Notes under the pieces: generated by a model
What the model saw: the letters and a program-made list of their open reading frames with translations, nothing else
Databases searched by the model: none
Told to the model about the DNA's origin: nothing
Translations under genes and position numbers: made by a program
Source: Gemmatimonadales bacterium
GTDB lineage: Bacteria > Gemmatimonadota > Gemmatimonadetes > Gemmatimonadales > GWC2-71-9
Length of the DNA stretch: 53,748 nucleotides
Assembly (NCBI GenBank): GCA_039930845.1
Contig: JBDTTA010000002.1
Coordinates: 1-53,748, forward strand
Direction: 5' to 3'
Shown here: positions 1 through 32,898 of the stretch, in pieces
Numbering within the stretch: position 1 is the first letter of the stretch
Layout: the number at the start of each line of letters is the position of its first letter

Positions 1-1148
1 CCGGCACGAACGGGAAGACGACGACCGCCGGTCTCCTCAAGCATCTCTTCAACGATCGGGACACGGCGGCCAGCATCGGCACGCTCGGCGCGTTCGACGG
101 CCAGGGGCGACAGATCCCGTCCTCTGCCGGGACGCTCACGACACCCGGACCGATCGATCTGCAGGCCACGCTCGCCGAGCTCGTGAAACGCGGGACGACC
201 CACGTGGCGCTGGAGGCTTCGTCACACAGCCTCGACCAGGGACGCCTCGACGGCCTCGTGTTCGCGGCGGGGATCTTCACCAACCTCACCCGCGACCATC
301 TCGACTACCACGGCACGATGGAGTCCTATCTCGGCGCCAAGCTCAAATTGATCTCGCTGCTGAGCTCGACGGGCCTCGAGGTCGTGAACCTCGACGATGA
401 CGCCTGGCGTGCATTACCCCGCGGCCCGGCCCGGGTGACCTTCGGCCTCGACCGGGCAGCGGATGTCCGCGCATCCGGCGTCGTGCTCGACGCGGCCGGG
501 AGCCGCTTCGAGCTGAGCGGCCGTTTCGGCACCGCCGAAGCCTCGGTCCCGCTGCTCGGGGATTTCAATGTGTCCAACGCGCTCGCCGCCGCGGCATGCG
601 CCCTGGGACTCGGACATTCGCTCGACCGGGTGATCGTTCGCCTCGCCACCCTCCCGCAGGTGCCGGGACGGATGGAACGGATCTCGGACACGCCCTGCGT
701 GGTGCTTCGCGACTACGCGCATACCCCCGACGCGCTCGAGCGGGCGCTCGCCACGCTGAGACCCCTCACACGAGGGCGGCTCATCGTGGTTTTCGGCTGC
801 GGCGGCGATCGTGACCGCGGCAAGCGACCGATCATGGGCCGCATCGCCGCGCAGGGGGCCGACCTCGCGGTGGTCACGTCGGACAATCCCCGCACCGAGG
901 AACCCGGCGCCATCATCGACGACGTGGAGCAGGGAATGGGCGACGTGCCTCACGCGCGCATCGTCGACCGTCTCGCCGCCATCCACGCGGCGCTCGACGA
1001 GGCGCGCCCCGGCGACACGCTGCTGCTCGCCGGCAAGGGGCACGAGACCTACCAGGTGATCGGGACGGACAAGGTGCCGTTCGACGAGCGGGAGATCGTG
1101 GAGAGCGCGGTGAAAGGGGACCGGGGAAAGGGGAAGGGGGAAAGGTGA
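1..1148 (+). CDS. murE: UDP-N-acetylmuramoyl-L-alanyl-D-glutamate--2,6-diaminopimelate ligase (MurE). 5' end truncated by the window edge; frame 3 is open from base 3.
   Basis: Frame 3 reads GTNGKTTT (Mur ligase P-loop) at bases 3-26, so the GTG at 183 is internal. Also DYAHTPDALERAL and VTSDNPRTEEP, typical of MurE. The stop overlaps the murF start (GTGA). Confidence 0.9.
   Translation, partial: GTNGKTTTAGLLKHLFNDRDTAASIGTLGAFDGQGRQIPSSAGTLTTPGPIDLQATLAELVKRGTTHVALEASSHSLDQGRLDGLVFAAGIFTNLTRDHLDYHGTMESYLGAKLKLISLLSSTGLEVVNLDDDAWRALPRGPARVTFGLDRAADVRASGVVLDAAGSRFELSGRFGTAEASVPLLGDFNVSNALAAAACALGLGHSLDRVIVRLATLPQVPGRMERISDTPCVVLRDYAHTPDALERALATLRPLTRGRLIVVFGCGGDRDRGKRPIMGRIAAQGADLAVVTSDNPRTEEPGAIIDDVEQGMGDVPHARIVDRLAAIHAALDEARPGDTLLLAGKGHETYQVIGTDKVPFDEREIVESAVKGDRGKGKGER
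1116..1140 (+). other. G-tract run (GGGG-acc-GGGG-aaa-GGGG-aa-GGGGG) with a canonical G-quadruplex pattern, just upstream of the murE stop / murF start
   Basis: Read directly. There are four runs of 4 or more G with loops of 2-3 nt, and a fifth GGGG at 1151-1154. It encodes the low-complexity MurE tail KGDRGKGKGER. Confidence 0.5.
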
Positions 1149-2524
1149 AAGGGGAGCGAGGCGAAGAGCCGGGTGGCATCGTCTGGACCGACGCCGATGT
1201 GCGGGCCGCGCTCGAGCTCGCTCCCTCCGGCGAGAAGCCGGTCATGTTCAGCGGGGTCACCACCGACAGCCGAGCCGTTTCCGCCGGTGCGCTCTTCGTG
1301 GCGCTATCCGGGGATCGCTTCGACGGGCACGACTACCTTGGAACGGTGGCGGCGGCCGGGGCGCTCGGCGCAGTGGTGAAGCGCGGCACCCCCGCCGTGC
1401 CCGGGCTCGCGCTGTTCGAGGTGGACGACACGCTCCTGGCCCTCGGGTGGCTGGCGAGGGCGCGTCGCCGGCGGATCGCCGGACCGGTCATCGCCATCAC
1501 CGGCACCAATGGAAAGACGAGTACCAAGGAGATGCTCGCCGCCGCGCTTCGTATCCGGTATGCGGTGTATGCCACCCGCGCCAACCTCAACAATCTGATC
1601 GGCGTTCCGCTCACCATCCTCGAGGCGCCGGCCGCCGCCGATGCGCTCGTGGTGGAGGCCGGCGCAAGCATTCCGGGTGAGATCCGCCGGGCACGGGGGA
1701 TCATCGAGCCGGACATCACCGTCGTGACGAACGCGGTCGCCGGACATCTCGAGGGCTTCGGCTCGCTTGCCGGCGTGATCGAGGAAAAGCTCGCGCTCAC
1801 CGACCGCGTCGAGCTCGCCATCGTCGGCCCCGACCCGGCAGAGCTGGCCGCGGGCGCGCGGCAGCGGGCGAAGCACGTGCGGACCGCCGGGCTCCGCGCC
1901 TCGGAGCTGGTGCCGGAGCATGTCGTGCTCGGCGAGGACGCACGGCCGGTCATGACGATCGGCGGGCAGACGTTTACCCTGGCCGCGCGCGGCCTGCACC
2001 AGGCGGACAATGCGGTACGGGTCTGGGCGGTGGTCGAAGCGCTCGGTCTCGATCGCGACGCAGCGGCGCGGGCGCTGGAGCGGTTCACCATCCCGGGCGG
2101 GCGCGGCGAGCTCATGCAGGTGGGCCGGCTGACCATTCTCAACGACTGCTACAACGCCAACCCGCAATCGTTCCATGCCGCCATCGACACGGCACGGGCG
2201 CTTCGCACCGGCCGCCGGCTGGTGTTCCTCGCGGGGACGATGCGGGAACTCGGGCCGGAGGGTCCCACGCTGCACGCCGCTGTCGCCCGGGCGCTCGTCG
2301 AGTTGGAGCCGGACCTCCTCGGCGCGGTCGGCGAGTTCGTCCCGGCGCTCGAGCCGTACGCGGCCCGGCTGGGCGAGCGCCTGGTGACCGCCGCCGATCC
2401 GATCGCGCTCGGGGAGCGGCTTGCCGGGCGGCTTGCCGGCGACGAAGTCGTGGTCCTCAAGGCATCCCGCGGCGTGGCGCTCGAACGTATACTTCCGGCG
2501 CTGCTGGCTGGTGTACACGAATAA
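1145..2524 (+). CDS. murF: UDP-N-acetylmuramoyl-tripeptide--D-alanyl-D-alanine ligase (MurF). The last 7 codons and the stop are supplied by the inserted DNA.
   Basis: VTTDSRAVSAGALFVALSGDRFDGHDY and ITGTNGKTSTKEM P-loop. Position between murE and mraY. Confidence 0.9.
   Translation: MKGERGEEPGGIVWTDADVRAALELAPSGEKPVMFSGVTTDSRAVSAGALFVALSGDRFDGHDYLGTVAAAGALGAVVKRGTPAVPGLALFEVDDTLLALGWLARARRRRIAGPVIAITGTNGKTSTKEMLAAALRIRYAVYATRANLNNLIGVPLTILEAPAAADALVVEAGASIPGEIRRARGIIEPDITVVTNAVAGHLEGFGSLAGVIEEKLALTDRVELAIVGPDPAELAAGARQRAKHVRTAGLRASELVPEHVVLGEDARPVMTIGGQTFTLAARGLHQADNAVRVWAVVEALGLDRDAAARALERFTIPGGRGELMQVGRLTILNDCYNANPQSFHAAIDTARALRTGRRLVFLAGTMRELGPEGPTLHAAVARALVELEPDLLGAVGEFVPALEPYAARLGERLVTAADPIALGERLAGRLAGDEVVVLKASRGVALERILPALLAGVHE
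2482..2502. repeat. Left copy of a perfect 21-bp direct repeat, cgaacgtatacttccggcgct, inside the murF 3' end
   Basis: Identical 21-mer at 6291-6311. The flanking bases differ on both sides. Confidence 0.9.
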
Positions 2525-2904
2525 GTGACACCATAACATTGACTTACGATTTGTCACGGCGAGCAGTGGCTAAGCGATCTCCAGTCCTCCTCATTGCGGC
2601 TCGACTTGATCGTCCTAAACGTCTTCACCATGCGCACGGAAGCCCCCGGAGTGAGGGCCGTGCTGGAGCGGCAGTTCCCGAGCGTGCTCCTACTCCGGCT
2701 CGAGGAAGTTGCCCCCTTTCCCGTGGACCAGTTGTGGCCTTGGCCGCGGAGCGATCCGCGCTGGTCAGCTCGCCGCTAACTAGAAGAATCCAATGACTAT
2801 CGGCATGGCAGGGGAGGGATGATGCTGACATCCCGCATGAGCTTTGAGGTGGAAGGCTGCTGCGACGCACTCGTTGATCAGATCCACGCCACGATCGGCG
2901 GACA

Positions 2905-3894
2905 ATGATGGTGGAGGCGCGGCCGATCTTCGTCTTCGGCTGCCCACGCTCGGGCACCTCCGTCCTCGCCCGAATGTTGGACACCCACCCCGACATCGGG
3001 ATCCCCTACGAGTCGCACCTGTACAACAGGGTCTATCCCGTGGTGCGGCAATTCGGCATTGATCTGGGGCAGCCCAGCACGCGCGCCCGATTCATCAAGG
3101 AGCTGCTGCGCACCGATCCTCTGTCACTGTGGACGCCTCGACCTTCCGTCACCGATACCATGACGGCTATCACCCGGAACGATTTTCACGGTGTCGTCGA
3201 AGGTCTGATGCGAGCTTGGCTCAGCACGCAGGGCAAATCGCGCTGGGGCGAGAAGACCCCACCTCACACGCTGTGCTGGCGTGACATTCGTGAAGGGTTT
3301 CCGAACCTCCAGGTCATCAACCTAATCCGTGACGGCCGAGACGTGGCGTTGTCCCACAAGGCCGCACCCTTTGGGCCCAAGCACATCTACCACCTGGCCC
3401 GCCGCTGGGTGCAATACCTCGATGCGGCCGAGCAGGCGCAATCTGCGCTCGGACCGGAGGCGTTCCTCTCGGTGCGCTACGAGGACCTTGTCGCGGACCC
3501 CGAGCGCGAGCTGCGCCGCATCTGCGTATTTTTGGAGGAGGATTACAGCCCCACGATGCTCGGGTTCCATCGGACAGATGTAGCGTATCCGACCGATCAT
3601 CGAAACGACGACAACCTCCGCCGGCCGGTACTCGCGCATAACACCGAGAAGTGGCGAGGGCAGATGACGCCGAGAGAGTTGCGGATCTTCGAGACGTTCG
3701 CGGGAAATCACCTGGAGCGATATGGGTACCCAAGGGCAGTCCGTGAACCGCATCTGCCGGCATGGGAAGAATTCTCGTGCCGATTCATCGAGCACCCACC
3801 TCGTCGAGCGCTGGCCATGCTGACCAATCGCCAGGGGTACCGTTTTGCCTTCCAGCGGTTCCGGCTGAACACGCGGATCCGTTTCGGACTTTAG
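2905..3894 (+). CDS. PAPS-dependent sulfotransferase family protein
   Basis: N-terminal FVFGCPRSGTSVLARML (5'-phosphosulfate-binding loop) and LIRDGRDVALSH (3'-phosphate-binding RxxRDxxxS motif). 329 aa. Confidence 0.8.
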   Translation: MMVEARPIFVFGCPRSGTSVLARMLDTHPDIGIPYESHLYNRVYPVVRQFGIDLGQPSTRARFIKELLRTDPLSLWTPRPSVTDTMTAITRNDFHGVVEGLMRAWLSTQGKSRWGEKTPPHTLCWRDIREGFPNLQVINLIRDGRDVALSHKAAPFGPKHIYHLARRWVQYLDAAEQAQSALGPEAFLSVRYEDLVADPERELRRICVFLEEDYSPTMLGFHRTDVAYPTDHRNDDNLRRPVLAHNTEKWRGQMTPRELRIFETFAGNHLERYGYPRAVREPHLPAWEEFSCRFIEHPPRRALAMLTNRQGYRFAFQRFRLNTRIRFGL

Positions 3895-4916
3895 GCCATG
3901 CTGGCGACAGTCATCAATATGTAGCCGAAGTCGCGATACCACTTCAGCGTCGATCTGATCCCGTCACTCAGGCTCACCTCAGGGCGATAGTCGAGCACGC
4001 GCCGCGCCTTTTCAATGGTGAATGCCCGACTCTTGGTGTAGAAGTCCACGCGGCGTCGGTGAATGGGTGGCTCAATGCCGAACGGGATGCAGGCTTTCTC
4101 ACACAACGTCCCGAGGATCTGGAACGGCCGAGCCGGCAGCCGGAGCCAGGACTGAGACACGCCGGCCGCCTCGGCGATGAGGCCGGCGACCTGACGTAGC
4201 GTGTAGTAGCGATCGCCGCCCAGGATGAACACTTCCCCTGCAGCGCGCGGATCGGTGCCCAGCAGGCGCAGGCCCGCCACCAAGTCGTACACGTGTACCA
4301 TGTGGTAGAAGATGTCGCCGGTTCCGAGTACGATGAAGCGCCGCCGAGCGATCATGCTGAACAACTTGAGGAGCCGAGTGTCGCCTGGCCCGTAGATCGC
4401 GGTGGGACGCGCCACCGTAACAGACAGCCCGTTGGGATCGTTGTAGGAAAGAGCTAGCTGCTCTCCCTCGAGCTTGGTCCGTTGATACACGTCCCCCGGC
4501 GCGTACGGAGCGTGTTCGTCAGCGGGGGGCGACAGAATATCTCCGTGCACTCCAACGGTACTACAGTGCACGAAACGCTCGACCCCTCGGGCCTTCGCCG
4601 CGTCGAGGAGGAGCCGGGTCGCGTCCACATGCACTCGGGCATAGTAATCGTCGTGGTGTTTCGCCTCCCGGTACGCCGCGGCCAGATGATAAACCGTGTG
4701 TGCACCGGCAACTGCGCGCTCAACTGTGACGCGATCGGTAACATCACCCTCCACGATGTCCAAACCGGCCGGAAGCTTCTCGTCAGCCTTCGTCCCCGGA
4801 CGGGCGATGACCCGCACGGACTCTCCGTCAGCCGTGAGCGATCGAACGAGGTGCGCACCCGTGAAGCCCGTCGCGCCGGTCACGAGAGTGACTGGTTTCT
4901 CCGAGTCTCCGCTCAT
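3891..4916 (-). CDS. Extended SDR family NAD(P)-dependent epimerase/dehydratase
   Basis: VTLVTGATGFTGAHLV Rossmann GxxGxxG motif, HCSTVGVHG and the YQRTK (YxxxK) catalytic motif. The ATG at 4916 is preferred (aagg 6 nt upstream). The longest ORF starts at the GTG at 4940. Confidence 0.8.
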   Translation of the reverse strand: MSGDSEKPVTLVTGATGFTGAHLVRSLTADGESVRVIARPGTKADEKLPAGLDIVEGDVTDRVTVERAVAGAHTVYHLAAAYREAKHHDDYYARVHVDATRLLLDAAKARGVERFVHCSTVGVHGDILSPPADEHAPYAPGDVYQRTKLEGEQLALSYNDPNGLSVTVARPTAIYGPGDTRLLKLFSMIARRRFIVLGTGDIFYHMVHVYDLVAGLRLLGTDPRAAGEVFILGGDRYYTLRQVAGLIAEAAGVSQSWLRLPARPFQILGTLCEKACIPFGIEPPIHRRRVDFYTKSRAFTIEKARRVLDYRPEVSLSDGIRSTLKWYRDFGYILMTVASMA

Positions 4917-5021
4917 GTTGCGCCTTTGATTCGGGTTCACCGACTACGACTCTCTCGCATGAATCGTATCCCAAGTATCCATCATCCAGCCGTGATGCTG
5001 GTCACGGGCGCTGCAGCTCTA

Positions 5022-5546
5022 TCAACGGCGAGTGATTATAACCTTCGCTGGGTTGCCTTGAACGATCGCGCGCTCAGGAATGCGTCCACTGACGGTCGAG
5101 CCGGCCGAGACGATCACGTCATCACCGATCTGTGTCCCATCCAGGATGACGGAATTGGCACCCAGCCACACCCGGTTTCCGATTCGGACGCCCAGGCTTT
5201 CCGTGCCCTGCTCGGTCAGCGGAACACCCAGCTGGTCGTACTTGTAGTTGATTGTCAGAATTGTGCAGTTGGGACTGATGAGCACATCGTCTCCCACGAT
5301 CAGTCCGGCCGCTGCCGCACCGATGTACGTGTTGCTGCCGATCTGTACACCCTTACCCATCACGAAACGCCCGGAGATCTTGATCTTCGCGAACGCCGAG
5401 ATCACGCAGCCTCGACCCCAATCGGTCGTGGTGGCGAGTTCGACTTCGGACCGACGACTGATCACAGTGCCATGCTTTGCGAGGTAGTAGAGCCGCACCA
5501 CGATCGATGGGATAAGCGCCCGGCGGACCGAGCGCAGCTTATACAC
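5022..5546 (-). CDS. Left-handed beta-helix (hexapeptide-repeat) acyl/acetyltransferase, sugar O-acetyltransferase-like
   Basis: Hexapeptide repeats IGSNTYIGAAAAGLIVGDDVLISPNCTI and VRIGNRVWLGANSVILDGTQIGDDVIVSAGSTV, ending in IVQGNPAKVI. Confidence 0.8.
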   Translation of the reverse strand: MYKLRSVRRALIPSIVVRLYYLAKHGTVISRRSEVELATTTDWGRGCVISAFAKIKISGRFVMGKGVQIGSNTYIGAAAAGLIVGDDVLISPNCTILTINYKYDQLGVPLTEQGTESLGVRIGNRVWLGANSVILDGTQIGDDVIVSAGSTVSGRIPERAIVQGNPAKVIITRR

Positions 5547-5730
5547 GTACGCTCACGCCGTCCGCCGCCCAGACTGGCTCTGCCCAGGGGCCAAGGTATG
5601 AGTCCATCATCGTGGCCTGAGGCATTGGGATCCCTGGAGTGAGGGGTGTGGCTATCGCCGAACAGTGTAAAGTAACACTGAACAGGACGTAAGCGGCACT
5701 GAACACGATCCAGGCGCCGTCCTCACCAGC

Positions 5731-5823
5731 GCAAAGTTGAGTGCGGCTGGTGTGCAAATTTCTGTGCAAAGTTCAAACGATCATCCTGCACATTTCAGCT
5801 GGTCCGCTCATGCATCCTGCACA
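5731..5823. promoter_or_regulatory. AT-rich repeat array upstream of the minus-strand acetyltransferase/epimerase pair: 2x tgtgcaaa, 2x atcctgcaca, 2x gcaaagtt
   Basis: tgtgcaaa at 5751-5758 and 5763-5770. atcctgcaca at 5783-5792 and 5814-5823. gcaaagtt at 5731-5738 and 5767-5774. The cores tgtgca and tgcaca are reverse complements of each other. Confidence 0.35.
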
Positions 5824-5828
5824 GGTCA

Positions 5829-5846
5829 CCCATTCCCCCTCTGAAG
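5829..5846. repeat. Left copy of an 18-bp imperfect direct repeat (cccattccccctctgaag) flanking the RecQ relic
   Basis: 16 of 18 bases identical to 6228-6245 (cccattctccctctgagg). Confidence 0.7.
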
Positions 5847-5855
5847 CAGGCTAAA

Positions 5856-6010
5856 TGTTCGCCAGGCCCTAGCCAGCGGGCTCACGCATCGACAAGCCCG
5901 ATGTCCGTCTGGTCGTCCACTGGACCCTCCCGCCACGCCGGAGGCGTAGCATCAGTAGCCGTGCGGCCTGGCAGCACGGCGAACTCGCCCCGGGCATCCT
6001 CCGGCGCGAG
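5856..6010 (+). pseudogene. Decayed fragment of a RecQ-family helicase (motif V/VI region)
   Basis: 5888-5935 reads IDKPDVRLVVHWTLPP. After a 1-nt frame slip, 5935-5958 reads TPEA*HQ*, which matches the RecQ xxEAYYQExGRAGRDG motif with Tyr and Glu codons turned into TAG. No intact ORF or start codon. Confidence 0.45.
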
Positions 6011-6227
6011 GGGCGGGCCGATAGTTCTTCCCACCCCATTGTGAAATTTTTCGGGGGAGCCCTGCTCGCGATATTCTTCGCAGCGACGGGCCGCGCCCTC
6101 GCCACCCGGCCTTTTCCACGGGCCGGGGCCTTGCCATTTGAGGGGGGGCAGTCGGCGACGTGCCGACTGTGAAGCCCTTGTGAAGGTGTGGAAGCGTAGA
6201 CGCCACTAGTGTAGACTACTCCGCCGG

Positions 6228-6245
6228 CCCATTCTCCCTCTGAGG
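6228..6245. repeat. Right copy of the 18-bp imperfect direct repeat
   Basis: See 5829-5846. Confidence 0.7.
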
Positions 6246-6290
6246 ACGCGTCCCCAGCTATCCTGAGACGTCTCCTTTTTCCGCCTGGAA

Positions 6291-6311
6291 CGAACGTATA
6301 CTTCCGGCGCT
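6291..6311. repeat. Right copy of the perfect 21-bp direct repeat
   Basis: Identical to 2482-2502. Confidence 0.9.
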
Positions 6312-6363
6312 CACGGCCCAGGCGGGTCCCGACGCGGGCAATGCTCCTCTTCGATCACGCTGA
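6292..6363 (+). pseudogene. Displaced ancestral 3' end of murF (ERILPALTAQAGPDAGNAPLRSR*)
   Basis: The first 7 codons, ERILPAL, match murF 2483-2503 at the protein level, and the first 20 nt are identical. The frame stays open to a TGA at 6361-6363, 6 nt before the mraY ATG. A gagg Shine-Dalgarno-like sequence for mraY sits around that stop codon. Confidence 0.6.
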
Positions 6364-6369
6364 GGTTCG

Positions 6370-7497
6370 ATGTTCTATCACCTGCTCGCTCCGCTCGGCA
6401 AGACCTACATCATCTTCAATCTCTTCAACTACATCAGCTTTCGGGCGGCGGGTGCCACGGTCACGGCGCTGCTGCTCGCCTTCCTGGTCGGCCCGCCGGT
6501 GATCGCGCGCCTGCGTGCGCGCAAGGTGGGACAGGTCATCCGCGCCGACGGCCCCGCGACACACCAGGTCAAGCGCGGCACGCCCACGATGGGCGGGCTC
6601 ATCATCATCCTCTCGACGGTGGTGCCGACACTTCTCTGGGCCCCGCTCACCAATCGCTTTGTCGTTGTGGCGATGCTCTCGACACTCTGGATGGGGTGCA
6701 TCGGATTTCTCGACGACTATCTCAAGATCGTGCAGGGCAAGTCTCGCGGACTGGTGGCCCGCTGGAAGCTCGCGGGCCAGGTGAGCTTCGGACTGCTCCT
6801 CGGCCTCTTCCTCACCTTTCACCCCGTCGTTTCGATCGACACCATCCCCGCCACTGCCACGACACTCCCCTTCTTCAAGTATCTCGTCGTGAATTTCGCG
6901 CCATGGCTGTATGTAGCCTTTGTGACGCTGGTCATCACGGGCACCAGTAACGCGGTCAATCTCACCGACGGGCTCGACGGGCTCGCCACCGGCCTCGCGG
7001 GGATCGCGGCCGCCGCCTTCGCCACATTCGCCTATCTGTTCGGCCGTGTCGACGTGACGGGCTACCTCAATCTCTTCTATCTCCCGGGCGCCGGTGAGCT
7101 CACGATCTTCTGCGCCGCGCTCATGGGCGCGACCATCGGCTTTCTCTGGTTCAACGCGCATCCGGCCCAGGTCTTCATGGGGGACACGGGGAGTCTGGCC
7201 ATCGGCGGCGCGCTCGGCACGGTGGCGATCCTGCTCAAGGCGGAGTTTCTCCTCCTGGTGATCGGCGGTGTGTTCGCCACGGAAGCCGTCTCGGTGCTGC
7301 TGCAAACCGGGACCTACAAGTGGTACAAGCGAACCCGCGGCAGGGAGTACGCCGATGCGCACCGGGTGTTCCGAATGGCCCCGCTGCATCACCACTTCGA
7401 GAAGCTCGGCTGGGCCGAGACCACGGTTGTCACCCGTTTCTACATCCTCGGGCTCTTCTGCGCGCTGATTGCGCTGTCCACCCTGAAGGTGCGCTGA
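6370..7497 (+). CDS. mraY: Phospho-N-acetylmuramoyl-pentapeptide-transferase (MraY)
   Basis: MFYHLLAPL N-terminus, GTPTMGG, NAVNLTDGLDGLA, HHHFE. A polytopic membrane protein of 375 aa. Confidence 0.95.
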   Translation: MFYHLLAPLGKTYIIFNLFNYISFRAAGATVTALLLAFLVGPPVIARLRARKVGQVIRADGPATHQVKRGTPTMGGLIIILSTVVPTLLWAPLTNRFVVVAMLSTLWMGCIGFLDDYLKIVQGKSRGLVARWKLAGQVSFGLLLGLFLTFHPVVSIDTIPATATTLPFFKYLVVNFAPWLYVAFVTLVITGTSNAVNLTDGLDGLATGLAGIAAAAFATFAYLFGRVDVTGYLNLFYLPGAGELTIFCAALMGATIGFLWFNAHPAQVFMGDTGSLAIGGALGTVAILLKAEFLLLVIGGVFATEAVSVLLQTGTYKWYKRTRGREYADAHRVFRMAPLHHHFEKLGWAETTVVTRFYILGLFCALIALSTLKVR

Positions 7498-7499
7498 CG

Positions 7500-8867
7500 G
7501 TGGCGCCGGTGCCGCTGTTCGAGGAGTGGCGTCGTAGCGGACTGGAAGTCGCCGTCGTGGGGCTGGGAAAGAGCGGCGTGGCCGCGACGCGACTGCTCCG
7601 GAGTCTGGAAATCCCGGTATACGCGTCCGACACCGGTACCGGTGCACGGTTCGATGCCTGGGGCACCGCGTTGCGCGCGGTAGGTGCCGCGGTGGACGTG
7701 GGGCGCCACGATCTCGAGCGGATCGGGCGAGCGGTCTCGGTGGTGGTCGCCCCCGGGGTGCCGCCCGGCGTGCCGCCGCTCGAGACGGCGAAACAGGCTG
7801 GTCTTCCTGTATATGCCGAGGTGGACATCGGGTTTCTGGCGCTCGACGGTGCAAAATGTATCGGGATCACGGGAACCAACGGGAAGACGACCACCACCTC
7901 GCTCGTCGCGCATGCGATGGTGGCCGGCGGCCTCCGGGCGGAATCGGCGGGCAATATCGGCCGGCCGCTCTGCGACGTGGCGCTCTCCCTGGACCGTCTT
8001 GACTGGATTGCCCTCGAGCTTTCCTCATTCCAGCTCCACGATGCACCGCACCTGCGGCCTGCCATCGGGGTGCTGACCAACCTGGCACCCAATCACCTCG
8101 ATCGCTACGAAACGCTCGAGGCGTACTACGGCGACAAGGCCGAGCTGTTCCGGAATGCGGACCCGGATTCGGTGTGGGTGACCAATGCCGATGACCAGGC
8201 CGTGCAGGAGATGGCGAGCGGCGTCGCGGGCCATCACCTGCGATTCTCGATTCAGCGCCGCGCCGACGGCTGGTTCGATCGGGCAGGCGCCCGGCTCATG
8301 CTCGACGCCGAGGTGGTCCTCCCCCGCGGCGAGCTGCCGCTCCTTGGCGATCACAATGTCGCCAACGCGCTGGCGGCCGCGCTCGTCGCCCGGCGCGCGG
8401 GGTGCACGCTCGAGCGCATCGCGGCGGGGCTCCGGACCTTCCGCGCCATCCCGCATCGGGTCGAGCCGGTACGCGAGGTGGACGGCGTGCTCTGGATCAA
8501 CGACTCGAAGTCCACCAACATCACCTCGACGGCGGTGGCGATCGCCTCCCTCGACCGGCCGTTCGTGCTCCTGCTCGGCGGACGGCACAAGGGCGAGCCG
8601 TACACGCGCCTGGCTGGACCGCTCCAGGGACGCTGCCGGGCCGTCGTGGCCTATGGAGAGGCGGGGCCGCTCGTGATCCGGGATCTCGGCGGCGCGGTGC
8701 CCGTGGTCCCGGCGGGCGATTTCGACGACGTCCTCGCCACCGCGCGGCGTCTGGCCCAGCGGGGCGATGCGGTGCTCCTCTCTCCCGCCTGCTCGAGCTA
8801 CGACATGTTCCACAACTACGAAGAGCGCGGCGAGCGCTTCAGGGCCGGCGTCGAGGCGATGAAATGA
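7500..8867 (+). CDS. murD: UDP-N-acetylmuramoylalanine--D-glutamate ligase (MurD)
   Basis: VVGLGKSGVAATRLL and ITGTNGKTTTTSL. The GTG at 7500 lies just after the mraY stop. The ORF portion from 7320 overlaps mraY and is judged spurious. Confidence 0.9.
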   Translation: MAPVPLFEEWRRSGLEVAVVGLGKSGVAATRLLRSLEIPVYASDTGTGARFDAWGTALRAVGAAVDVGRHDLERIGRAVSVVVAPGVPPGVPPLETAKQAGLPVYAEVDIGFLALDGAKCIGITGTNGKTTTTSLVAHAMVAGGLRAESAGNIGRPLCDVALSLDRLDWIALELSSFQLHDAPHLRPAIGVLTNLAPNHLDRYETLEAYYGDKAELFRNADPDSVWVTNADDQAVQEMASGVAGHHLRFSIQRRADGWFDRAGARLMLDAEVVLPRGELPLLGDHNVANALAAALVARRAGCTLERIAAGLRTFRAIPHRVEPVREVDGVLWINDSKSTNITSTAVAIASLDRPFVLLLGGRHKGEPYTRLAGPLQGRCRAVVAYGEAGPLVIRDLGGAVPVVPAGDFDDVLATARRLAQRGDAVLLSPACSSYDMFHNYEERGERFRAGVEAMK

Positions 8868-10036
8868 CTGAGGGCAGATCGATCCGGCATCCGGGCGAGA
8901 TGCGGTGGGAAACCCGGCTGCTGGGCATGGTCACGGCGGTGCTGGTCGTCTTCGGCATCGCGGCGACGTACGGCGCGGCGAGCCTGGTGACCGTCAAGGG
9001 ACAGAACGTCGGCATCTGGTTTGCCGGGCGTCAGCTCGTCGGCGCCCTGATCGGCGGCGCGCTGCTGCTGCTCGCATCCCGGCAGGATTACTACCGCTGG
9101 CGGCGGGTAGCCTGGCCGCTGCTGCTTTTGACCCTCGGCCTCCTCCTCATCCCCCTGCTTCCGTTCACCAGGTCCATTTCGCCCCTGCTGAACGGCGCAC
9201 GCCGATGGGTGGACATCGGGCCCCTGAACTTCCAGCCCTCGGAGCTTGCCCGACTGGCCGTGGTGATCTGGTGTGCCATGCTGGCGTCGAAAAAAGGACA
9301 GCAGATGCGCGACTTCAAGCGTGGGGTCGTGCCGTTCATCATGATTCTCGGTCTCGTTTCCCTGCTCATTGCCCTCGAGCCCAACCTCTCGATGGCGACG
9401 CTCGTGGCGATTCTCGGCGGCCTCGTGCTGTTCACGTCCGGGGCGAGGATCGGACACTTCTTCCTGCTGTTCGGTGTCGGGATGATTCTCCTTTTTCACC
9501 AGATTCGCGACGCGCAGTATCGGCTTGCGCGGTTCGTGACGTTCCTCAATCCGGGGGACGCCACGAGCGATGCGGGCTTCCAGATCCATCAGTCGCTCGT
9601 CGGCATCGGCTCCGGTGGAATACTGGGCACCGGGTTTGGGGAGGGTCAGCAGAAGCTCGGATATCTCCCCTACGCCTATTCCGATTTCCTCTTCAGTACC
9701 ATCGGCGAAGAATGGGGATTTCTCGGCGTGGTCGTCGTCGTCTCGCTCTTTGCGCTATTCTGCTGGCTCGGCTTCCGCATCGCGCGCACCGCCGCCGATC
9801 CGTTCGGCCAGTATCTCGCGGTCGGCCTCACCGCCACGATCGGCCTCACCGCGTTTCTTCACATGGCGGTCTCGCTGGGGATGATGCCAACCACCGGGTT
9901 GACGCTACCGTTCATGTCCTACGGCCGCTCGAGCCAGGTGATCTCGCTGCTCGGCACGGGAATCCTGATCAATATCGGCCGCCTGCGTGGTCGACCCGCG
10001 CCCGTCAGAAAGTCCCGCGAGGGCAAGGAGAAGTGA
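8864..10036 (+). CDS. ftsW: Peptidoglycan glycosyltransferase / lipid II flippase-type SEDS protein FtsW
   Basis: ATGA overlap with the murD stop. Multi-TM protein with the QPSELARLAVVIW motif (SEDS family). Confidence 0.9.
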   Translation: MTEGRSIRHPGEMRWETRLLGMVTAVLVVFGIAATYGAASLVTVKGQNVGIWFAGRQLVGALIGGALLLLASRQDYYRWRRVAWPLLLLTLGLLLIPLLPFTRSISPLLNGARRWVDIGPLNFQPSELARLAVVIWCAMLASKKGQQMRDFKRGVVPFIMILGLVSLLIALEPNLSMATLVAILGGLVLFTSGARIGHFFLLFGVGMILLFHQIRDAQYRLARFVTFLNPGDATSDAGFQIHQSLVGIGSGGILGTGFGEGQQKLGYLPYAYSDFLFSTIGEEWGFLGVVVVVSLFALFCWLGFRIARTAADPFGQYLAVGLTATIGLTAFLHMAVSLGMMPTTGLTLPFMSYGRSSQVISLLGTGILINIGRLRGRPAPVRKSREGKEK

Positions 10037-10043
10037 CGTTGCC

Positions 10044-11132
10044 GTGAAGCGCATTCTCGTCGCCGGAGGTGGCACGGGTGGCCACCTCATGCCCGCGTTG
10101 GCAATCGCCGGCGCACTCAAGGAGCGGATGCCTGACATCGAGCCGGTGCTGGTGGGCGCCGTCCGTGGCGTCGAGGCTCGCATCCTGCCGACCCGCGAGT
10201 TCCGTTACCATCTACTCCCGTCCGAGCCGATCTACCGCCGCGCGTGGTGGCGCAACGTCCGCTGGCCGCTTCTCGCGGGTCGCCTGCTCATCCAGCTCGA
10301 GCGACTGTTCGAGCGGGAACAGCCCGTGGCCGTGATCGGCACAGGTGGGTACGCATCGGGTCCGGTGGTCTGGTGGGCCGCGCGCAAGGGAATTCCGACT
10401 GCCATCCAGGAGCAGAATGCGTATCCGGGTGTCGCGACCCGCTGGCTCAGCCGCCGGGTCCGCCACATCTATCTCGGGCTGCCCGAGACGGGCCGCCTGA
10501 TTCGGCCCGGCCCGCACACCACGGTGTTCGACACTGGCAATCCGATCGCCCCGCCGACACCCGAGCGGCGTCCCGAGTCACTGGAGCTCTTCGGTCTCGA
10601 CGGCTCACGGCCCGTCGTCCTGGTGACCGGCGGGAGTCAGGGGGCGCTGGCCATCAATCGCGCGGTCGCCGGGTGGCTCGACGGCGGCGGGGCGGCCGAC
10701 CTGTCACTGCTCTGGGTCACCGGCCGGCAGACCTACCAGCAGTTCACCCGCTTCCACCGGCCTCCCGGTGTTCGAGTCGTCGATTTTCTCGACCCGATGG
10801 CGGACGGCTACGCGGTGGCGGACCTCGTCATTTCCCGGGCGGGGATGCTGACGGTGGCGGAACTGTGCGCCTGGGGACTGCCGAGCATCCTGATCCCGCT
10901 CCCCTCGGCGGCGGCGGACCACCAGACCCACAACGCACGCGTCCTCGGGGATGCCGGTGCCGCCCTGCTCATGCCGCAGCGGGAGCTGACCCCGGAGAGC
11001 CTCGCGGGGACGGTGAGGAGAGTGCTGGCGAACACGTCGTTCAGGACCGCGATGGCACAGCGGGCGCGGGAGCGCGGCCGGCCCCAGGCCGCGCAGGAAA
11101 TCGTGTCGAATTTATTGACGCTGATTTCCTGA
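10044..11132 (+). CDS. murG: UDP-N-acetylglucosamine--N-acetylmuramyl-(pentapeptide) pyrophosphoryl-undecaprenol N-acetylglucosamine transferase (MurG)
   Basis: VKRILVAGGGTGGHLMPALAIA N-terminus and AADHQTHNA near the C-terminus. GTG start at 10044. Confidence 0.9.
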   Translation: MKRILVAGGGTGGHLMPALAIAGALKERMPDIEPVLVGAVRGVEARILPTREFRYHLLPSEPIYRRAWWRNVRWPLLAGRLLIQLERLFEREQPVAVIGTGGYASGPVVWWAARKGIPTAIQEQNAYPGVATRWLSRRVRHIYLGLPETGRLIRPGPHTTVFDTGNPIAPPTPERRPESLELFGLDGSRPVVLVTGGSQGALAINRAVAGWLDGGGAADLSLLWVTGRQTYQQFTRFHRPPGVRVVDFLDPMADGYAVADLVISRAGMLTVAELCAWGLPSILIPLPSAAADHQTHNARVLGDAGAALLMPQRELTPESLAGTVRRVLANTSFRTAMAQRARERGRPQAAQEIVSNLLTLIS

Positions 11133-11141
11133 CGCGTGCAC

Positions 11142-11172
11142 TTTGAGTTGACAGATGGCCTACTTACATTTG
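11142..11172 (+). promoter_or_regulatory. Candidate promoter for murC of the Bacteroidetes type: tttg-N19-tacatttg (TTTG / TAnnTTTG)
   Basis: A 50-bp AT-rich gap in an otherwise gapless GC-rich cluster. tttg at 11142-11145 and tacatttg at 11165-11172, 10 nt before the ATG at 11183. A TTGACA at 11148-11153 has no usable -10 box. Confidence 0.25.
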
Positions 11173-11182
11173 CTCATCCATC

Positions 11183-12556
11183 ATGGACCTGTTCTCTCCC
11201 GCCGATAGGCGCCCTGTTCATTTCGTAGGTATCGGCGGGGCGGGAATGAGTGCATTGGCGCTCATCGCCAGCCGGCGCGGCATCGTGGTGAGCGGGTGCG
11301 ACACCGATCTCACCGGGGCGGCCGATCTGGCCGCGAGGGGCGTGCCGCTCTTCACCGGTCACGATCCCGCGCACCTCGAGGGAGTCCGCGCCGTCATCGT
11401 GACGGCGGCGGTGCCGCCGGGACACCCCGAGCTGGTCCGGGCGCATGAGCTGGGCGTGCCGGTTGTTCCGCGCAAGGACGCGCTGGCCCGTCTGATCGGT
11501 CACGCGAGATCGGTGGCGGTGTCCGGCACCCATGGGAAGACCACCACCACGGTCATGGCCACCGAGGCGCTCACCGCCGCGGGGTTCGATCCCACCGGGA
11601 TTGCCGGCGGCCGGGTGAGCGAGTGGGGCGGCAACGCCCGGCTCGCCGGTGATTCGCTCTTCGTGGTGGAAGCGGACGAGTACGACAAGGCCTTTCTTAC
11701 CCTGCAGCCAACCATCGCGATCGTGAACAACGTGGAGCCCGACCACCTCGAGTGCTACGGGTCGGTGAACGCGCTTGAGGACGCCTTCGTGGAGTTCGCC
11801 GGGCGCGCCTCGACCGCCATCGTCAGTGCCGACGATCCCGGTGCCCGCCGGGTGGGCCTCCGCCTCCCGGCGAAGGTGCTGCGCTTCGGATTCGCGGACG
11901 ACGCCGAGATCGCCATCTCGAATGTGGTGCAGGCCAGCGAGCGGACCGAGGCCCGGGTCACCTGGAAGGCCGGCCCCGCACTCTCCGTGAGGCTTGGCGT
12001 GCCCGGCATCCATAACCTCCGGAATGCCGTCGCCGCTCTCGCCGCGGTCGAGGCGCTGGGCGGCGACCTCGCCGCGGCAGCGAGTGCACTGGAAAGGTTC
12101 CACGGCGTTGGCCGGCGGTTCGAACGGCTGGGCGAGCATGGGGGTGTCGCGGTCGTCGACGACTACGCGCATCATCCCACCGAGCTGGCGGCCACCCTTT
12201 CGGCGGCCCGCCAGGCATATCCCGATCGCCGGATCGTCGCGGTGTTCCAGCCGCATCTCTATTCGCGGACGGCGCAGCACGGCCAGGCGATGGGACAGGC
12301 GCTGGCCGCGGCGGATCTCGTGATCGTCACCGAGGTGTATGCGGCGCGCGAGCAGCCCATCGTCGGGGTGAGTGGCCGCCAGGTGGCGGAGGCCGCCAGA
12401 GGTGCCGGTGCGAATGCGAGCTTTGAACCCGTGCGGGCCGACGTCGGACGGCGGGTCTACGAAGCGCTCAAGCCGGGAGACGTGGTGCTCACCCTGGGCG
12501 CGGGTGACATCACCCGCGTGGGTGCCGAGCTGGTCCGATGGCTGGACGCCGCCTGA
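11183..12556 (+). CDS. murC: UDP-N-acetylmuramate--L-alanine ligase (MurC)
   Basis: HFVGIGGAGMSALA, VSGTHGKTTTT, DDYAHHPTE. Confidence 0.95.
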   Translation: MDLFSPADRRPVHFVGIGGAGMSALALIASRRGIVVSGCDTDLTGAADLAARGVPLFTGHDPAHLEGVRAVIVTAAVPPGHPELVRAHELGVPVVPRKDALARLIGHARSVAVSGTHGKTTTTVMATEALTAAGFDPTGIAGGRVSEWGGNARLAGDSLFVVEADEYDKAFLTLQPTIAIVNNVEPDHLECYGSVNALEDAFVEFAGRASTAIVSADDPGARRVGLRLPAKVLRFGFADDAEIAISNVVQASERTEARVTWKAGPALSVRLGVPGIHNLRNAVAALAAVEALGGDLAAAASALERFHGVGRRFERLGEHGGVAVVDDYAHHPTELAATLSAARQAYPDRRIVAVFQPHLYSRTAQHGQAMGQALAAADLVIVTEVYAAREQPIVGVSGRQVAEAARGAGANASFEPVRADVGRRVYEALKPGDVVLTLGAGDITRVGAELVRWLDAA

Positions 12557-13227
12557 ATCGCCGATGGGCGGCGCTCGGCGCCCTGGCTGTGCTGCTCGGC
12601 GCCACGCTCGCCGGGCCTCGACTGCTGCAGCAGCTCAGTTTCTTTCGGGTGAGGCGAGTGGAGATTAGCGGATTGCAGTATCTTGCTCCGGCGACGGTGA
12701 TGCACGCGCTCAAACTGTCTCCCGACGCGAGCGTCTTCGACGATCCAGCGCTGCTCGCCCGCCGGGTCTTCTCGGTTCCGGGCGTCGAGTCGGCCACGGT
12801 GGAGCGACGGCTGCCGGGGACGCTCGAAATCGAGGTCGCGGAGGCGGTTCCAGTGGCACTCGTGGCCGCCAACGGCCGGCTTACGATGCTCGATGCGAAG
12901 GGCAAGGTGCTCCCGTTCGACCCGGTGACGTCGGCGCCGGATCTGCCCCTCGCGGCCGGTGGAGATAGAGTGGTGGCGTCCGTCCTCGCGCGGGTGCGCG
13001 ACTACGCCCCCGATCTGTTCGCGCGGGTGAGCGAGGGGTGGCGGGTGGGGCCCGACGTGGTGCTCGACGTCGAGGGACGGCGGCTCTGGTTCGGCGCGCA
13101 GGTTTCCGCGGAGGATATTCGAGCGGTGATGGCGGTGGAGCAGAGTCTCGCCCGGCAGGGGCGCCCATTTCAGGAACTCGACGGCCGCTACGCCGGCCAG
13201 GTGATCGTCCGCGGATGGCGCGGTTGA
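12538..13227 (+). CDS. ftsQ: Cell division protein FtsQ (POTRA domain)
   Basis: N-terminal TM segment, then FRVRRVEISGLQYLAPATVMHAL (POTRA). Position between murC and ftsA. Overlaps murC by 19 nt. Confidence 0.8.
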   Translation: MAGRRLNRRWAALGALAVLLGATLAGPRLLQQLSFFRVRRVEISGLQYLAPATVMHALKLSPDASVFDDPALLARRVFSVPGVESATVERRLPGTLEIEVAEAVPVALVAANGRLTMLDAKGKVLPFDPVTSAPDLPLAAGGDRVVASVLARVRDYAPDLFARVSEGWRVGPDVVLDVEGRRLWFGAQVSAEDIRAVMAVEQSLARQGRPFQELDGRYAGQVIVRGWRG

Positions 13228-14477
13228 GCGCTCCGCCGCAGCGGCTCGTCGCCGCCCTCGACCTCGGCTCCACGAAGGTCGTGGCGCTCATCGCCGAGGT
13301 AACGGGCGATGCGAGGGAGAGCGGCGCCAAGATTCTCGGCGTCGGTGTCGAGCGCAGCAACGGCATCCGCCGCGGGGTCGTCCGGGACATCGAGGAAACC
13401 ACCCGCGCCATCGACCGCGCCATGAAGAGCGCGCAACGAATGGCCGGCGTCGAAGTCGGCTCGGCGTACTGCGGCATCGCGGGCGAGCACACGGCGGGGC
13501 GCAGCAGCCACGGCATGGTGTCGGTCACCGGCGACGAGATCCGGACGAGTGACGTCGCCCGAGTCAACGACATGGCGAGCAATATCAGCTTCGGCCGTGA
13601 CCACGAGCTGCTGCACGCCATCCCCCAGGACTACCTCATCGACCAGCAGGGCGGCATCAGCGAGCCGATCGGGATGACGGGCTCGAGACTTGAAGCCGAG
13701 GTATATCTGGTTACCGTTCTGTCGAGCGTCCTGCAGAATCTCAGGAAATGCGTCGAGCGGGCCGGGTACCACGTCGCGGAGTTCGTGCTGGAACCGCTCG
13801 CGGCCTCGCTCGGTGTGCTGACGCCGGACGAGATCGAGCTCGGCTGCGCCATCATCGAGCTGGGCGGCGGTTCCACCAACGTCTCGATTTTCTACAATGG
13901 AAAGATCCGCCACACCGGCTCGCTTCTTTGCGCCGGCGGTCACGTCACCGCGGACATCGTGCACGGCCTCCAGGTTACCCAGCTCGACGCTGAGCGGCTC
14001 AAGGAGCGCTACGGCGCCGGTTTCGAGCCGCTGGTGCCGGAGAGCGACACCTTCGATCTTCCCAGCACGCCGGGCCAGGGCGCCCGGAATGCCCAGCGGC
14101 GGGTCCTCGCGCATATCATGCACATGCGGCTCCAGGAAGTGCTGGAGTACGCGCTCGACGAGATCACCCGGGCCGGCTTTCACCAGGCCCTGCCGGCGGG
14201 AGTCGTCCTCACCGGCGGTGGGGCGCTGACCCCGGGGATCGTCGAGCTGGCCCGTGAGGTGTTCGCCATGCCGGCCCGCTGCGGGATTCCAGGGCAACGG
14301 CTGCGGGGTCTGGCGGACAGCGTGGAATCCCCCAGGATGGCGGTACCGGCGGGACTGGTGCTTTACGGTGCCCGCCAGGTTACGATGAGCGGCGGGTTCG
14401 GCACAGGCGCGCGGAAATCGCCGGCCGTCGAAAAGGTGCTCGCTCCGGTGAAACGGTGGCTCCAGGACTTCTTCTGA
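13215..14477 (+). CDS. ftsA: Cell division protein FtsA
   Basis: [18 protein letters not shown] actin-like phosphate-1 motif and [13 protein letters not shown]. The upstream part of the ORF (13038-13214) overlaps ftsQ and is judged spurious. Confidence 0.9.
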
Positions 14478-14497
14478 GCTGGGCCGAGGAACAGACT

Positions 14498-15670
14498 ATG
14501 ATTTTCGAGCTGGAAGAGAGCATCGTCCAGACCGCCAGAATGAAGGTGGTCGGCGTCGGCGGCGGTGGCGGCAACGCGGTCAACCGCATGATCGAGGATC
14601 AGCTCGGCGGGGTTGAGTTCATCTCGGTCAACACCGATGCGCAGGCGCTTGCCATGTCAAAATCCGACATCAAGATCCAGATCGGCCGCAAGCTCACACG
14701 CGGTCTCGGCGCCGGCGCCCGCCCGGAGATCGGACGGCAGGCCATCGAGGAATCCCGGGACGAGGTCGCGGCGGCGGTGCAGGGGGCCGATATGGTCTTC
14801 ATCACTTGCGGCATGGGCGGCGGCACCGGCACCGGCGCCGCGCCGGTCGTTTCGCAGATGGCGCGCGAGACCGGGGCTCTCACGGTGGGCATCGTCACGA
14901 AGCCGTTCCTCTTCGAGGGGCGCCGCCGGATGAAACAGGCCGACAGTGGCATCGCCGAAATGCGGAAGAACGTGGATACCATGATCGTGGTACCCAACGA
15001 ACGGCTGCTCGCCGTGGTCGGCAAGGGCATACCCTTCCAGGATGCGCTCAAGAAGGCCGACGAAGTCCTCCTCCACGCCACGCAGGGCATTGCCAGCCTC
15101 ATCACGTCCACGGGCATCATCAACGTGGACTTCGCCGATGTCCGCACCGTCATGCAGAACGGCGGCGCAGCGCTCATGGGCACCGGTATCGGACGCGGGG
15201 AGAACCGCGCGCTCGAGGCGGCGCAGCAGGCCATCTCGAGCCCGCTGCTCGACAACGTCTCCATTGCCGGCGCCACCGGCGTGCTCATCAACATCATCGG
15301 TGGCGACGATCTGACGCTCGGGGAAACCACCCAGATCAACGACATCATCCACGACGCGGTGGGCGATGACGCCGAAATCATCTTTGGTGCGGGCAACGAC
15401 CCCGCCATGCGCGGCGAGGTACGGGTGACGGTTATCGCCACCGGCTTCGACCGGGTTGTCAGCGGCGATCAACCACTCGGCCGGGTGTCCGGCGCGGCCA
15501 GCGTCATCAACTTCCCCCGGCACGGCCGAGTGTCATCCCCGTCGATGCCGGCGCAGCAGATCCCGCAGACAGCGGCCCCACGGGTCCAGCCTCGGGTGCC
15601 AACGCCGCCGCCGCCCACCGAAGTGCCGGAAATGGAAATCCCCACGTTCATCAGACGGCAGATGGACTGA
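14498..15670 (+). CDS. ftsZ: Cell division GTPase FtsZ
   Basis: [13 protein letters not shown], the [11 protein letters not shown] tubulin signature, and the C-terminal [11 protein letters not shown] peptide. Confidence 0.95.
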
Positions 15671-32598: not shown

Positions 32599-32882
32599 TT
32601 CGAAACCTTGCCGAAGACCACGTGATTGCGGCCTACGACTCGTTGCTGGCCCATTTCCCGGAGTTCTGCGGCTGCGAGGTGTGCAAGGACGACGTCATGG
32701 TGTTCACGCTCAATCGCGTGCAGCCGCGGTATGTCTCGGGACGCACCGGCTCCGTCGTCACCGAGGTCAGCCTGGAAAAGGAGCAGAGCCGCGCACCCAT
32801 CGACGTCGCCATGATGGAGGCGCTCAGGCGCATTTCGGTCACCCCTCGCTGCGGCGGCAAGGGAAGAGCAACGCAGCCGTAG
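32595..32882 (+). CDS. comFB: ComFB-family (late competence development protein) small protein
   Basis: FPEFCGCEVCKDDVMVFTLNRVQPRYV matches the CxCxxCxxDv..LN..PrY ComFB signature. 95 aa. GTGA overlap with miaB. Confidence 0.65.
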
Positions 32883-32898
32883 GCGCTGCGGTGGGCCG

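Follow-up and report, generated by a model that had tools for sequence, protein, structure and literature searches.

Introduction

CIMEs (cis-mobilizable elements) and the integrative and conjugative elements ICESt1 and ICESt3 of Streptococcus thermophilus reside in the 3′-end of fda, where they are flanked by direct repeats of approximately 20 to 30 bp; integrase-less derivatives need a recombinase provided in trans. In staphylococci, the 3′-end of rlmH (orfX) is the site of the staphylococcal cassette chromosome mec (SCCmec) and of pseudo-SCC elements. The serine recombinases CcrAB or CcrC are encoded by many copies, and many residents lack them. Phage 21 and the element e14 integrate in icd and replace the end of the gene. 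Islands with a dusA-specific integrase are described as integrating at the 5′-end of dusA (PMC4482086). Here we report on the junction of murF and mraY in a stretch of 53,748 bp from a Gemmatimonadales bacterium (GenBank assembly GCA_039930845.1, contig JBDTTA010000002.1, positions 1 to 53,748), which is called the window in the following. An islet of 3.8 kb of foreign DNA (positions 2503-6290), flanked by two copies of a 21-bp sequence, separates the two genes, and the same site is recurrently occupied by unrelated cargo in soil Gemmatimonadales. Both genes belong to the division and cell wall (dcw) cluster, whose conservation is textbook knowledge and which is thought to be co-transcribed.

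With CIMEs and the ICESt elements the islet shares the location in the 3′-end of a housekeeping gene, the flanking direct repeats and the integrase-less, att-flanked state. It differs from them in that neither an integrase-bearing parent nor tandem accretion was seen, that its site lies inside the dcw operon between essential, co-translated genes and that the repeat core appears to be a rare-codon host signal. One conserved gene-end site, highly variable cargo, direct repeats and residents without a recombinase are reminiscent of SCC, but at the islet there is no linked recombinase of any kind, nor are there the internal repeats of composite SCC arrays. As in icd and dusA, the integration lies within a coding gene, a substitute end is supplied and the target stays functional; those elements, however, carry their own tyrosine integrase by the att site, and the substitute end provided by the islet comprises only about seven codons that are unlike the native tail. 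Variable cargo between core genes, few or no mobility genes, a mosaic make-up and presence/absence polymorphism are also typical of hot spots of horizontal gene transfer, where, however, a precisely duplicated 21-bp core and conserved element-side ends are not normal. Integrons, too, combine a fixed platform with small, recombinase-less cassettes of unrelated function. The upstream neighbors of the islet, however, are the dcw genes murE, ftsI, ftsL and rsmH without an adjacent intI, neither attC-like sites (judged by eye) nor internal repeated sites were found, the genes are in both orientations, and products of attI x attC recombination do not have such a 21-bp duplication.

Results

The murF/mraY junction is split between two copies of a 21-bp sequence

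In the whole window the 21-mer CGAACGTATACTTCCGGCGCT, hereafter O, was found only at the two ends of the islet (Table 1), even when up to three mismatches were tolerated. Only 0.01 matches are expected by chance, and none of 100 shuffles gave two copies. Between positions 2300 and 6500, O was the sole notable direct repeat. The left copy spans codons 446 to 453 of murF and overlaps the last conserved residues of MurF, whose tail was compared with those of 120 homologues. Pfam assigned the domains Mur_ligase, Mur_ligase_M and Mur_ligase_C to MurF, the last of which ends at residue 441. The right copy is followed in the murF frame by ERILPALTAQAGPDAGNAPLRSR up to a TGA codon at 6361-6363, which overlaps the Shine-Dalgarno sequence GAGG of mraY (6362-6365), followed by the mraY ATG at 6370. 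The open frame of this stranded tail contains no start codon in the window. Reconstruction of the uninterrupted gene yielded a MurF protein of 469 aa, compared with 470 aa for homologues. Downstream of mraY, ftsZ was confirmed among the remaining dcw genes.

A first-pass annotation of this DNA had proposed an insertion into the 3′-end of murF, with the tail LLAGVHE and the new stop codon supplied by the insert, and with the ancestral tail left in front of mraY behind an exact second copy of the 21-mer. All of this was affirmed by the analysis of the window, and in the sequence collections described below the 21-mer was not a dispersed repeat. The predicted murF-mraY join (2502|6312) was also found, in two close relatives.

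Table 1. Features of the murF/mraY region (positions in the window)
Feature	Position	Strand	Remarks
murF, present form	1145-2524	+	459 aa; residues 453-459 (LLAGVHE) and TAA insert-derived
Left copy of O (putative attL core)	2482-2502	+	encodes (L)ERILPA(L)
Replacement tail P′	2503-2524	+	remainder of the 7 codons plus TAA, insert-borne
Left non-coding part of the insert	2525-2904		common only to L094/L095, ~89% identity; open reading frames without Pfam match
Sulfotransferase, cargo	2905-3894	+	Pfam Sulfotransfer_3, E = 2.5e-35; 97.6% identical copies in L094/L095
NAD-dependent sugar epimerase/dehydratase (short-chain dehydrogenase/reductase, SDR), cargo	3891-4940	-	Pfam Epimerase, E = 2.7e-42; antisense to dcw
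Hexapeptide-repeat O-acetyltransferase (WbbJ/WcaF-like), cargo	5022-5546	-	Pfam Hexapep; NCBIfam WbbJ-like below cut-off; antisense
Mosaic joint	5751-5816		~65 bp common to window, L094/L095 and L018
RecQ-family helicase motif-like scrap, IDKPDVRLVVHWTLP	5888-5932	+	PDB phmmer best BLM, RECQ4, E = 0.3; also in L018
Conserved right arm P	6040-6290	+	T-run, GACC(A/C)GGCCTTTT..., TTGAGGGGGGG; alignment of 8 arms
Right-junction motif GAGAYGTCYYC.NTTTYCNCC....	6265-6290	+	~26 nt, gap-free, abuts O in every aligned right junction
Right copy of O (putative attR core)	6291-6311	+	non-coding in the window, identical to left copy
Stranded ancestral murF tail, TAQAGPDAGNAPLRSR, with stop codon	6312-6363	+	murF of L073/L074 reads straight through
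mraY, intact, followed by the remaining dcw genes	6370-7497	+	Pfam Glycos_transf_4, MraY_sig1

Empty and occupied sites coexist in Gemmatimonadales

Genome and metagenome collections (596 Gb) were scanned for exact matches to O. This gave 71 loci with one exact copy each, whereby three metagenome-assembled genomes (MAGs) supplied two contigs each; additional loci were found by protein look-ups with MraY and MurF. With one exception, all loci containing the 21-mer were murF-mraY junctions of Gemmatimonadales. The exception (L040, Terriglobus) was rejected as a genuine site, as the 21-mer lies there inside an open reading frame (ORF) of 1121 aa and a match of this kind is roughly to be expected by chance in a search of 596 Gb. 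Out of the 70 Gemmatimonadales loci, 55 were empty, i.e., composed of murF, the 21-mer, a short tail and mraY, and at least 11 were occupied. The latter were recognized by ten right junctions with non-murF DNA to the left of the 21-mer and by one left junction with a foreign tail (L056).

The uninterrupted join is present in L073 and L074, whose MraY proteins are 99% and 96% identical, respectively, to that of the window. L073 aligns to positions 2372-2502 of the window and then from 6291 onward, L074 to 1-2502 and 6291-16885. In both of them, each of the two alignments includes the 21 bases, so that the join corresponds to 2502|6312. The identity of L073 to the window is 99.2% on the murF side (2372-2502) and 93.4% on the mraY side (6291-7673), a step that may mark a recombination breakpoint at the junction.

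The murF/mraY site is polymorphic within lineages. Two empty sites (L077 and L029) coexist with occupied sister contigs, one and the same MraY protein is encoded by five contigs, of which four are occupied and one is empty, and both states occur in a single MAG (L009, L029). The MurF proteins gave a similar picture. Instead of the longer native tails, 32 of the 120 closest MurF clusters (~27%) end in the short tail L-x-A-x-A-x-K/R/E, and wherever the DNA behind such a gene was readable, non-mraY DNA followed (9/9); the contig of L096 ends 400 bp past murF, so that its state is not readable.

Composition and content of the islet

The insert is foreign by composition. Its GC content is 0.615, compared with 0.681 +/- 0.009 in 93 equal-sized windows elsewhere (z = -7.5), and its tetranucleotide distance (z = +10.9) exceeds that of all 93 windows. 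GC at third codon positions (GC3) ranges from 0.72 to 0.76 in the genes of the insert and from 0.84 to 0.87 in the flanking genes. The higher AT content suspected in the first-pass annotation was thus borne out, as were the three cargo genes, two of them antisense, which were recognized by Pfam. Searches of NCBIfam with the insert genes gave sub-threshold matches of polysaccharide type only, including those of the epimerase, all of which were under the curated cut-offs. Taken together, a sulfotransferase, an SDR epimerase and an O-acetyltransferase most likely point to a modification of envelope polysaccharides. The remaining ~1.1 kb of the insert contain no convincing gene.

Two contigs from two Logan runs (L094 and L095) match the window at 96% identity in the left junction and the three genes, but diverge from it to the right of position 5816. 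Conversely, L018 has only the right 0.54 kb of the islet (5751-6290) in common with the window, at 80% identity. Hence, to the left of the joint listed in Table 1 the window follows L094/L095 over 3.3 kb, and to the right of it L018 over 0.54 kb. Judged by these alignments, the insert is a mosaic of an L094-like left and an L018-like right part. The joint at 5816 is present in this contig alone. The RecQ-like scrap, for which no match to Pfam was obtained, is probably a pseudogene remnant of an earlier cargo.

The terminal parts of L094 (3773-4052) and L095 (3052-3359), where they diverge from the window, run into an apparent truncated tRNA-Gln(UUG) gene. Both contigs end inside this gene, of which they contain the 3′-half in minus orientation. 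Islands adjoining tRNA genes often carry integrases.

The same site harbors unrelated cargo

One 21-bp site is recurrently occupied by unrelated cargo in soil Gemmatimonadales. An insert of ~3.1 kb with genes for a STAS protein, an ABC permease and an ATPase, all of them antisense, was found in L012, L042, L080-L088 and L090. All ten contigs sampled for the MraY cluster P0046, which stem from different metagenomes, carried it. L035, from another MAG, contains, at 2040-4823, a cyclic-oligonucleotide-based anti-phage signaling system (CBASS; SMODS cyclase and S_4TM effector) along with a fragment of a DUF499 ATPase, and by these gene assignments the site can host defense genes. The insert of L091 comprises five small genes, two of them of the SnoaL/DUF4440 type, that of L092 (>10 kb) genes for TPR, PKD/LamG, BTAD and S8 peptidase proteins, and that of L093 (>5 kb) response regulators. 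L018 harbors an IS3-family insertion sequence (IS) and DNA of no assigned function. The IS element (1180-2460) lies inside the islet and has perfect terminal inverted repeats of 24 bp, a third copy of which (88%) is located at 2412-2436.

At the other end of the size range is L089 with an insert of just 129 bp. It consists (11390-11496) only of the short tail and the right-end motif, together with a remnant that matches the 3′-end of the ABC ATPase gene (tcagatgtaaggatggcgg). The mini-insert indicates that the frame can outlive the loss of all cargo.

The inserts share their ends

Twelve left junctions were compared. In each of them O is followed by a short tail and TAA or TAG; the tail has seven codons in ten cases and six and five codons in the others. 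Past the stop codon, the left junctions show no conservation. At the right junction, the motif given in Table 1 is part of a longer conserved arm, which was aligned for the window, L018, L009, L076, L035, L002, L047 and L089, whose hosts represent three kinds of native murF tails. The arm extends over ~250 nt where the sequence is long enough; the upstream sequence of L002 and L047 is limited to ~200 nt, and L089 has kept no more than a short part of the arm. Within the arm there are G- and T-runs and a direct repeat of TGTGAAG (6168-6174 and 6179-6185 in the window). Identities of the arms range from 0.62 to 0.91 and those of the adjoining mraY genes from 0.82 to 0.90. For the pair L076-L047 the values are 0.91 (arm) versus 0.85 (mraY), a likeness that lies above the expectation for non-coding DNA diverging with its host. 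As the identities of the arms are comparable to those of mraY, the arm may be either constrained or moving between hosts.

The two copies of O share only 21 to 24 bp. In the other occupied loci the left copy deviates by zero to seven mismatches from O and the right copy by zero to three. A larger, decayed tandem duplication of the murF end was rejected as the origin of the repeats, because Smith-Waterman scores of the flanks did not exceed those of shuffled controls at five loci. A stable hairpin, a terminator or a structured RNA formed by the right motif was not supported: z-values extended from -4.1 to +1.5 and covariation was weak, with a covariation term of -0.42 kcal/mol in RNAalifold and compensatory changes in 5 of 47 pairs of the right arm. 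Rfam yielded no match for the right arm, neither at the gathering threshold nor at E <= 1, and no tRNA or Rfam element was detected at the junctions. As to elements that exploit Xer recombination (IMEX) at dif-like sites of 28 bp, no XerD arm of the TTATG type was seen by eye in O and its flanks (no dif model was run).

In seven arms (L009, L076, L035, L002, L047, L089 and L028) an in-frame ATG is located 23 nt before O, which opens a mini-ORF of 23 aa (e.g., MSSFSALFERILPALTARANSLG). In six of them the mini-ORF terminates at the old murF stop codon, 6 nt before mraY, while in L089 this stop is lost and the frame enters mraY. The window (6268-6270), L018 and L012 have ACG in place of the ATG and thus no start codon there. 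By its position the mini-ORF could preserve translational coupling.

O as a putative signal of mraY

The codons of O are GAA CGT ATA CTT CCG GCG. None of the 55 other isoleucine codons in murF, mraY and murD is ATA, and CTT, CGT and GAA are used at 7%, 9% and 18%, respectively, which gives a joint probability of ~7e-6 for such rarity. In the coding (left) copies of nine lineages, the wobble positions 4, 7, 10 and 13 have undergone about 15 changes, nearly all of them to G or C. Copies on the mraY side exhibited no substitution at these sites, although ten of these right-hand copies had been ascertained by exact match, so that their perfection is partly an ascertainment effect and the unbiased lineages number five; in L091, 4 nt are inserted just before position 7. 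The L080 lineage, which is old and fixed, has a decayed stranded tail that no longer ends in its stop codon, yet its wobble sites on the mraY side are unsubstituted. A relic of O in L080-L088, located 54 nt upstream of mraY (GGTACGTATAATTCCGGCGCT), shows a change of TATACT to the consensus -10 hexamer TATAAT.

Because of the codon rarity and the patterns of drift, O can be read as a cis-signal. Most simply, its wobble sites would be constrained on behalf of mraY and not by the coding of MurF; O might be a -10-like box (TATACT), an RNA signal or a site of processing or binding. It would then be more than an att core, namely a rare-codon block in which the nucleotides themselves are constrained in connection with mraY. 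A sigma-70 promoter directed toward mraY was rejected, as no consensus match was detected on the plus strand. Directly upstream of O, the rare alanine codon GCA in AAG GCA TCC (window ~2461-2481) was kept in all of the ~55 empty sites, and in the two oldest occupied lineages (L080 and L090) it reads GCG. The constrained block may therefore extend ~20 nt further upstream.

Discussion

A literature search for an islet between murF and mraY or an attB site in murF brought up nothing relevant. Repeats at both junctions, empty sites in relatives and conserved element-side ends agree with a CIME-type, att-flanked element. Since no tyrosine or serine recombinase was found on the element, the islet is not classed as an autonomous genomic island. 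We consider 2503-6290 to be a non-autonomous integrated islet of a family defined by O and similar to CIMEs or pseudo-SCC elements, with site-specific entry and later homologous reshuffling, and hold this reading with about even confidence. Other parts of the first-pass annotation have to be revised. It had regarded the islet as one fixed, decaying element, but the site is occupied by unrelated cargo in many Gemmatimonadales and its state varies within a MraY lineage and even within a MAG. The absence of an integrase from the insert was correctly noted, but its loss from a single element is not supported, since the family as a whole looks non-autonomous. The annotation had left a choice between site-specific and short-homology integration. 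Insertion at the 21-bp repeat stands, while entry of random DNA by short homology does not fit the conserved element-side ends of the inserts.

From the foreign DNA, the empty sites, the varied cargo and the common ends we infer a mechanism in which the chromosomal O recombined with the O of incoming P-O-P′ DNA, a conservative site-specific event that would insert the islet. The recombinase would not be encoded by the islet but act in trans, or it has since been lost. By the duplication of O, murF would keep ERILPAL and obtain a new tail of seven residues outside the ligase domain, and mraY would retain the signal in front of it together with the Shine-Dalgarno sequence and the old stop codon. 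Later exchange of cargo as well as gain and loss of islets would proceed mainly by homologous recombination via the flanking murF and mraY genes, and recombination through these flanks could have joined the L094-like left to the L018-like right part. A ComEC-type competence protein is encoded at 32815-35139 of the window, which bears on an exchange of the islet by transformation and homologous recombination.

Several results weigh against this reading. No recombinase gene was detected in six complete inserts nor in the readable 5-10 kb of three incomplete ones, for which Pfam was used on the inserts of the window, L018, L012 and L035 and precomputed gene tables on L080-L093. There was also none among 20 further ORFs of the window, a subset of its ORFs, most of which are housekeeping genes and four of which lack a Pfam match. 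A joined P-O-P′ (attP) was found neither on the 71 contigs with exact matches nor in IMG/VR, which represent assembled sequence only, and internal copies of O or tandem arrays did not occur. IMG/VR, searched with the exact 21-mer and three arm patterns, and PLSDB and INPHARED, searched with the insert, gave only chance matches and one distant epimerase. Moreover, the arms partly cluster by host clade, as vertical descent would also give, and the right motif contains an inverted repeat of inconsistent stability and with weak covariation. With regard to the signal, TATACT has no sigma-70 -35 partner and no consensus match on the plus strand, and the ascertainment of the right-hand copies mentioned above has to be counted here, too.

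The missing recombinase, attP junction and tandem array would also be explained if a single ancient insertion had created the O...O frame and cargo had later been gained, lost and swapped in this hot spot by illegitimate and homologous recombination, with empty sites as products of allelic replacement or of deletions from one repeat to the other and with no site-specific recombinase at work today. The mosaic structure with its shared 65-bp joint and the partial agreement of the arms with host clades are in line with this scenario. So are the conserved murF and mraY flanks, with MraY identities of 90% or more in the 120 clusters listed, and the drop in identity to L073 from 99% at the murF end to 93% at mraY, which suggests breakpoints nearby; in addition, comEC in the window makes natural transformation conceivable. 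However, empty sites dominate every clade including the nearest relatives, so that precise losses would have had to occur independently many times. In some cases the arms resemble each other more closely than do the mraY genes next to them, the perfect copies of O and the intact stranded tail in the window speak for a recent event, and both ends are conserved while the interior turns over. We regard an ancient insertion, the main rival, as possible, though somewhat doubtful. It is clearly less probable that selection merely filtered independent illegitimate insertions and let only those survive that duplicated O, an idea to which the nucleotide-level constraint on O and the drift of the left copy beside a held right copy lend some weight. 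The left boundary of the repeat is identical in every insert, seven-codon tails occur in 10 of 12 junctions and no indels interrupt the homologous right motif, where independent events should have left ragged, unrelated junctions; we therefore think this explanation very unlikely.

Two further explanations deserve hardly any credence. A de Bruijn loop or chimera formed via the 21-mer, behind which the true murF-mraY junction would be intact, had to be considered because the smallest k in common metagenome assemblers is 21, the window is a whole MAG contig and the joint at 5816 occurs in this contig only. But the left junction and the cassette were assembled independently in two Logan runs (L094 and L095), the right arm and its junction are present in many assemblies including contigs of 0.17 to 0.87 Mb (L002, L012 and L035), and older versions show diverged repeats. 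An artefact of this kind is thus scarcely credible. We attach just as little probability to a transposon or IS element with a target-site duplication of 21 bp, as the flanking direct repeats would suggest. Neither a transposase nor, in the repeat search of 2300-6500, terminal inverted repeats were found in or around the window insert, the IS element of L018 has its own inverted repeats of 24 bp and sits inside the islet, and the site is invariant in all genomes. In some elements, the similarity between P′ and the native tail even passes the edge of the repeat.

Going beyond the site-specific islet favored here, the locus might be a cassette-docking platform in the dcw operon, on which recombinase-less cassettes with an end module of ~250 nt are moved by an unlinked host or helper recombinase. 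The site would double as a cis-signal of mraY, and the end of the cassette would restore the context of mraY, often with the ATG of a mini-ORF that keeps up the coupling. We deem such a platform unlikely on present evidence. Functional likeness to integrons or SCC, with a different site and different ends, is a similarly unlikely corollary. If a trans-acting recombinase does exist, a new cassette system would be defined.

What sets the locus apart is its position in the dcw operon, the consistent lack of a recombinase and a hidden signal that seems to be linked to mraY. Gemmatimonadales tolerate 0.1 to >10 kb of accessory DNA, including antisense genes and defense systems, between murF and mraY, and it has to be asked how the division genes beyond such an islet in the dcw cluster are expressed. 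Occupied and empty alleles represent a natural experiment that exposes a rare-codon signal of 21 nt, which functionally would be that of mraY. For a soil phylum that is abundant but poorly cultured, the site might in addition provide a marker of variation at the strain level and a candidate landing pad.

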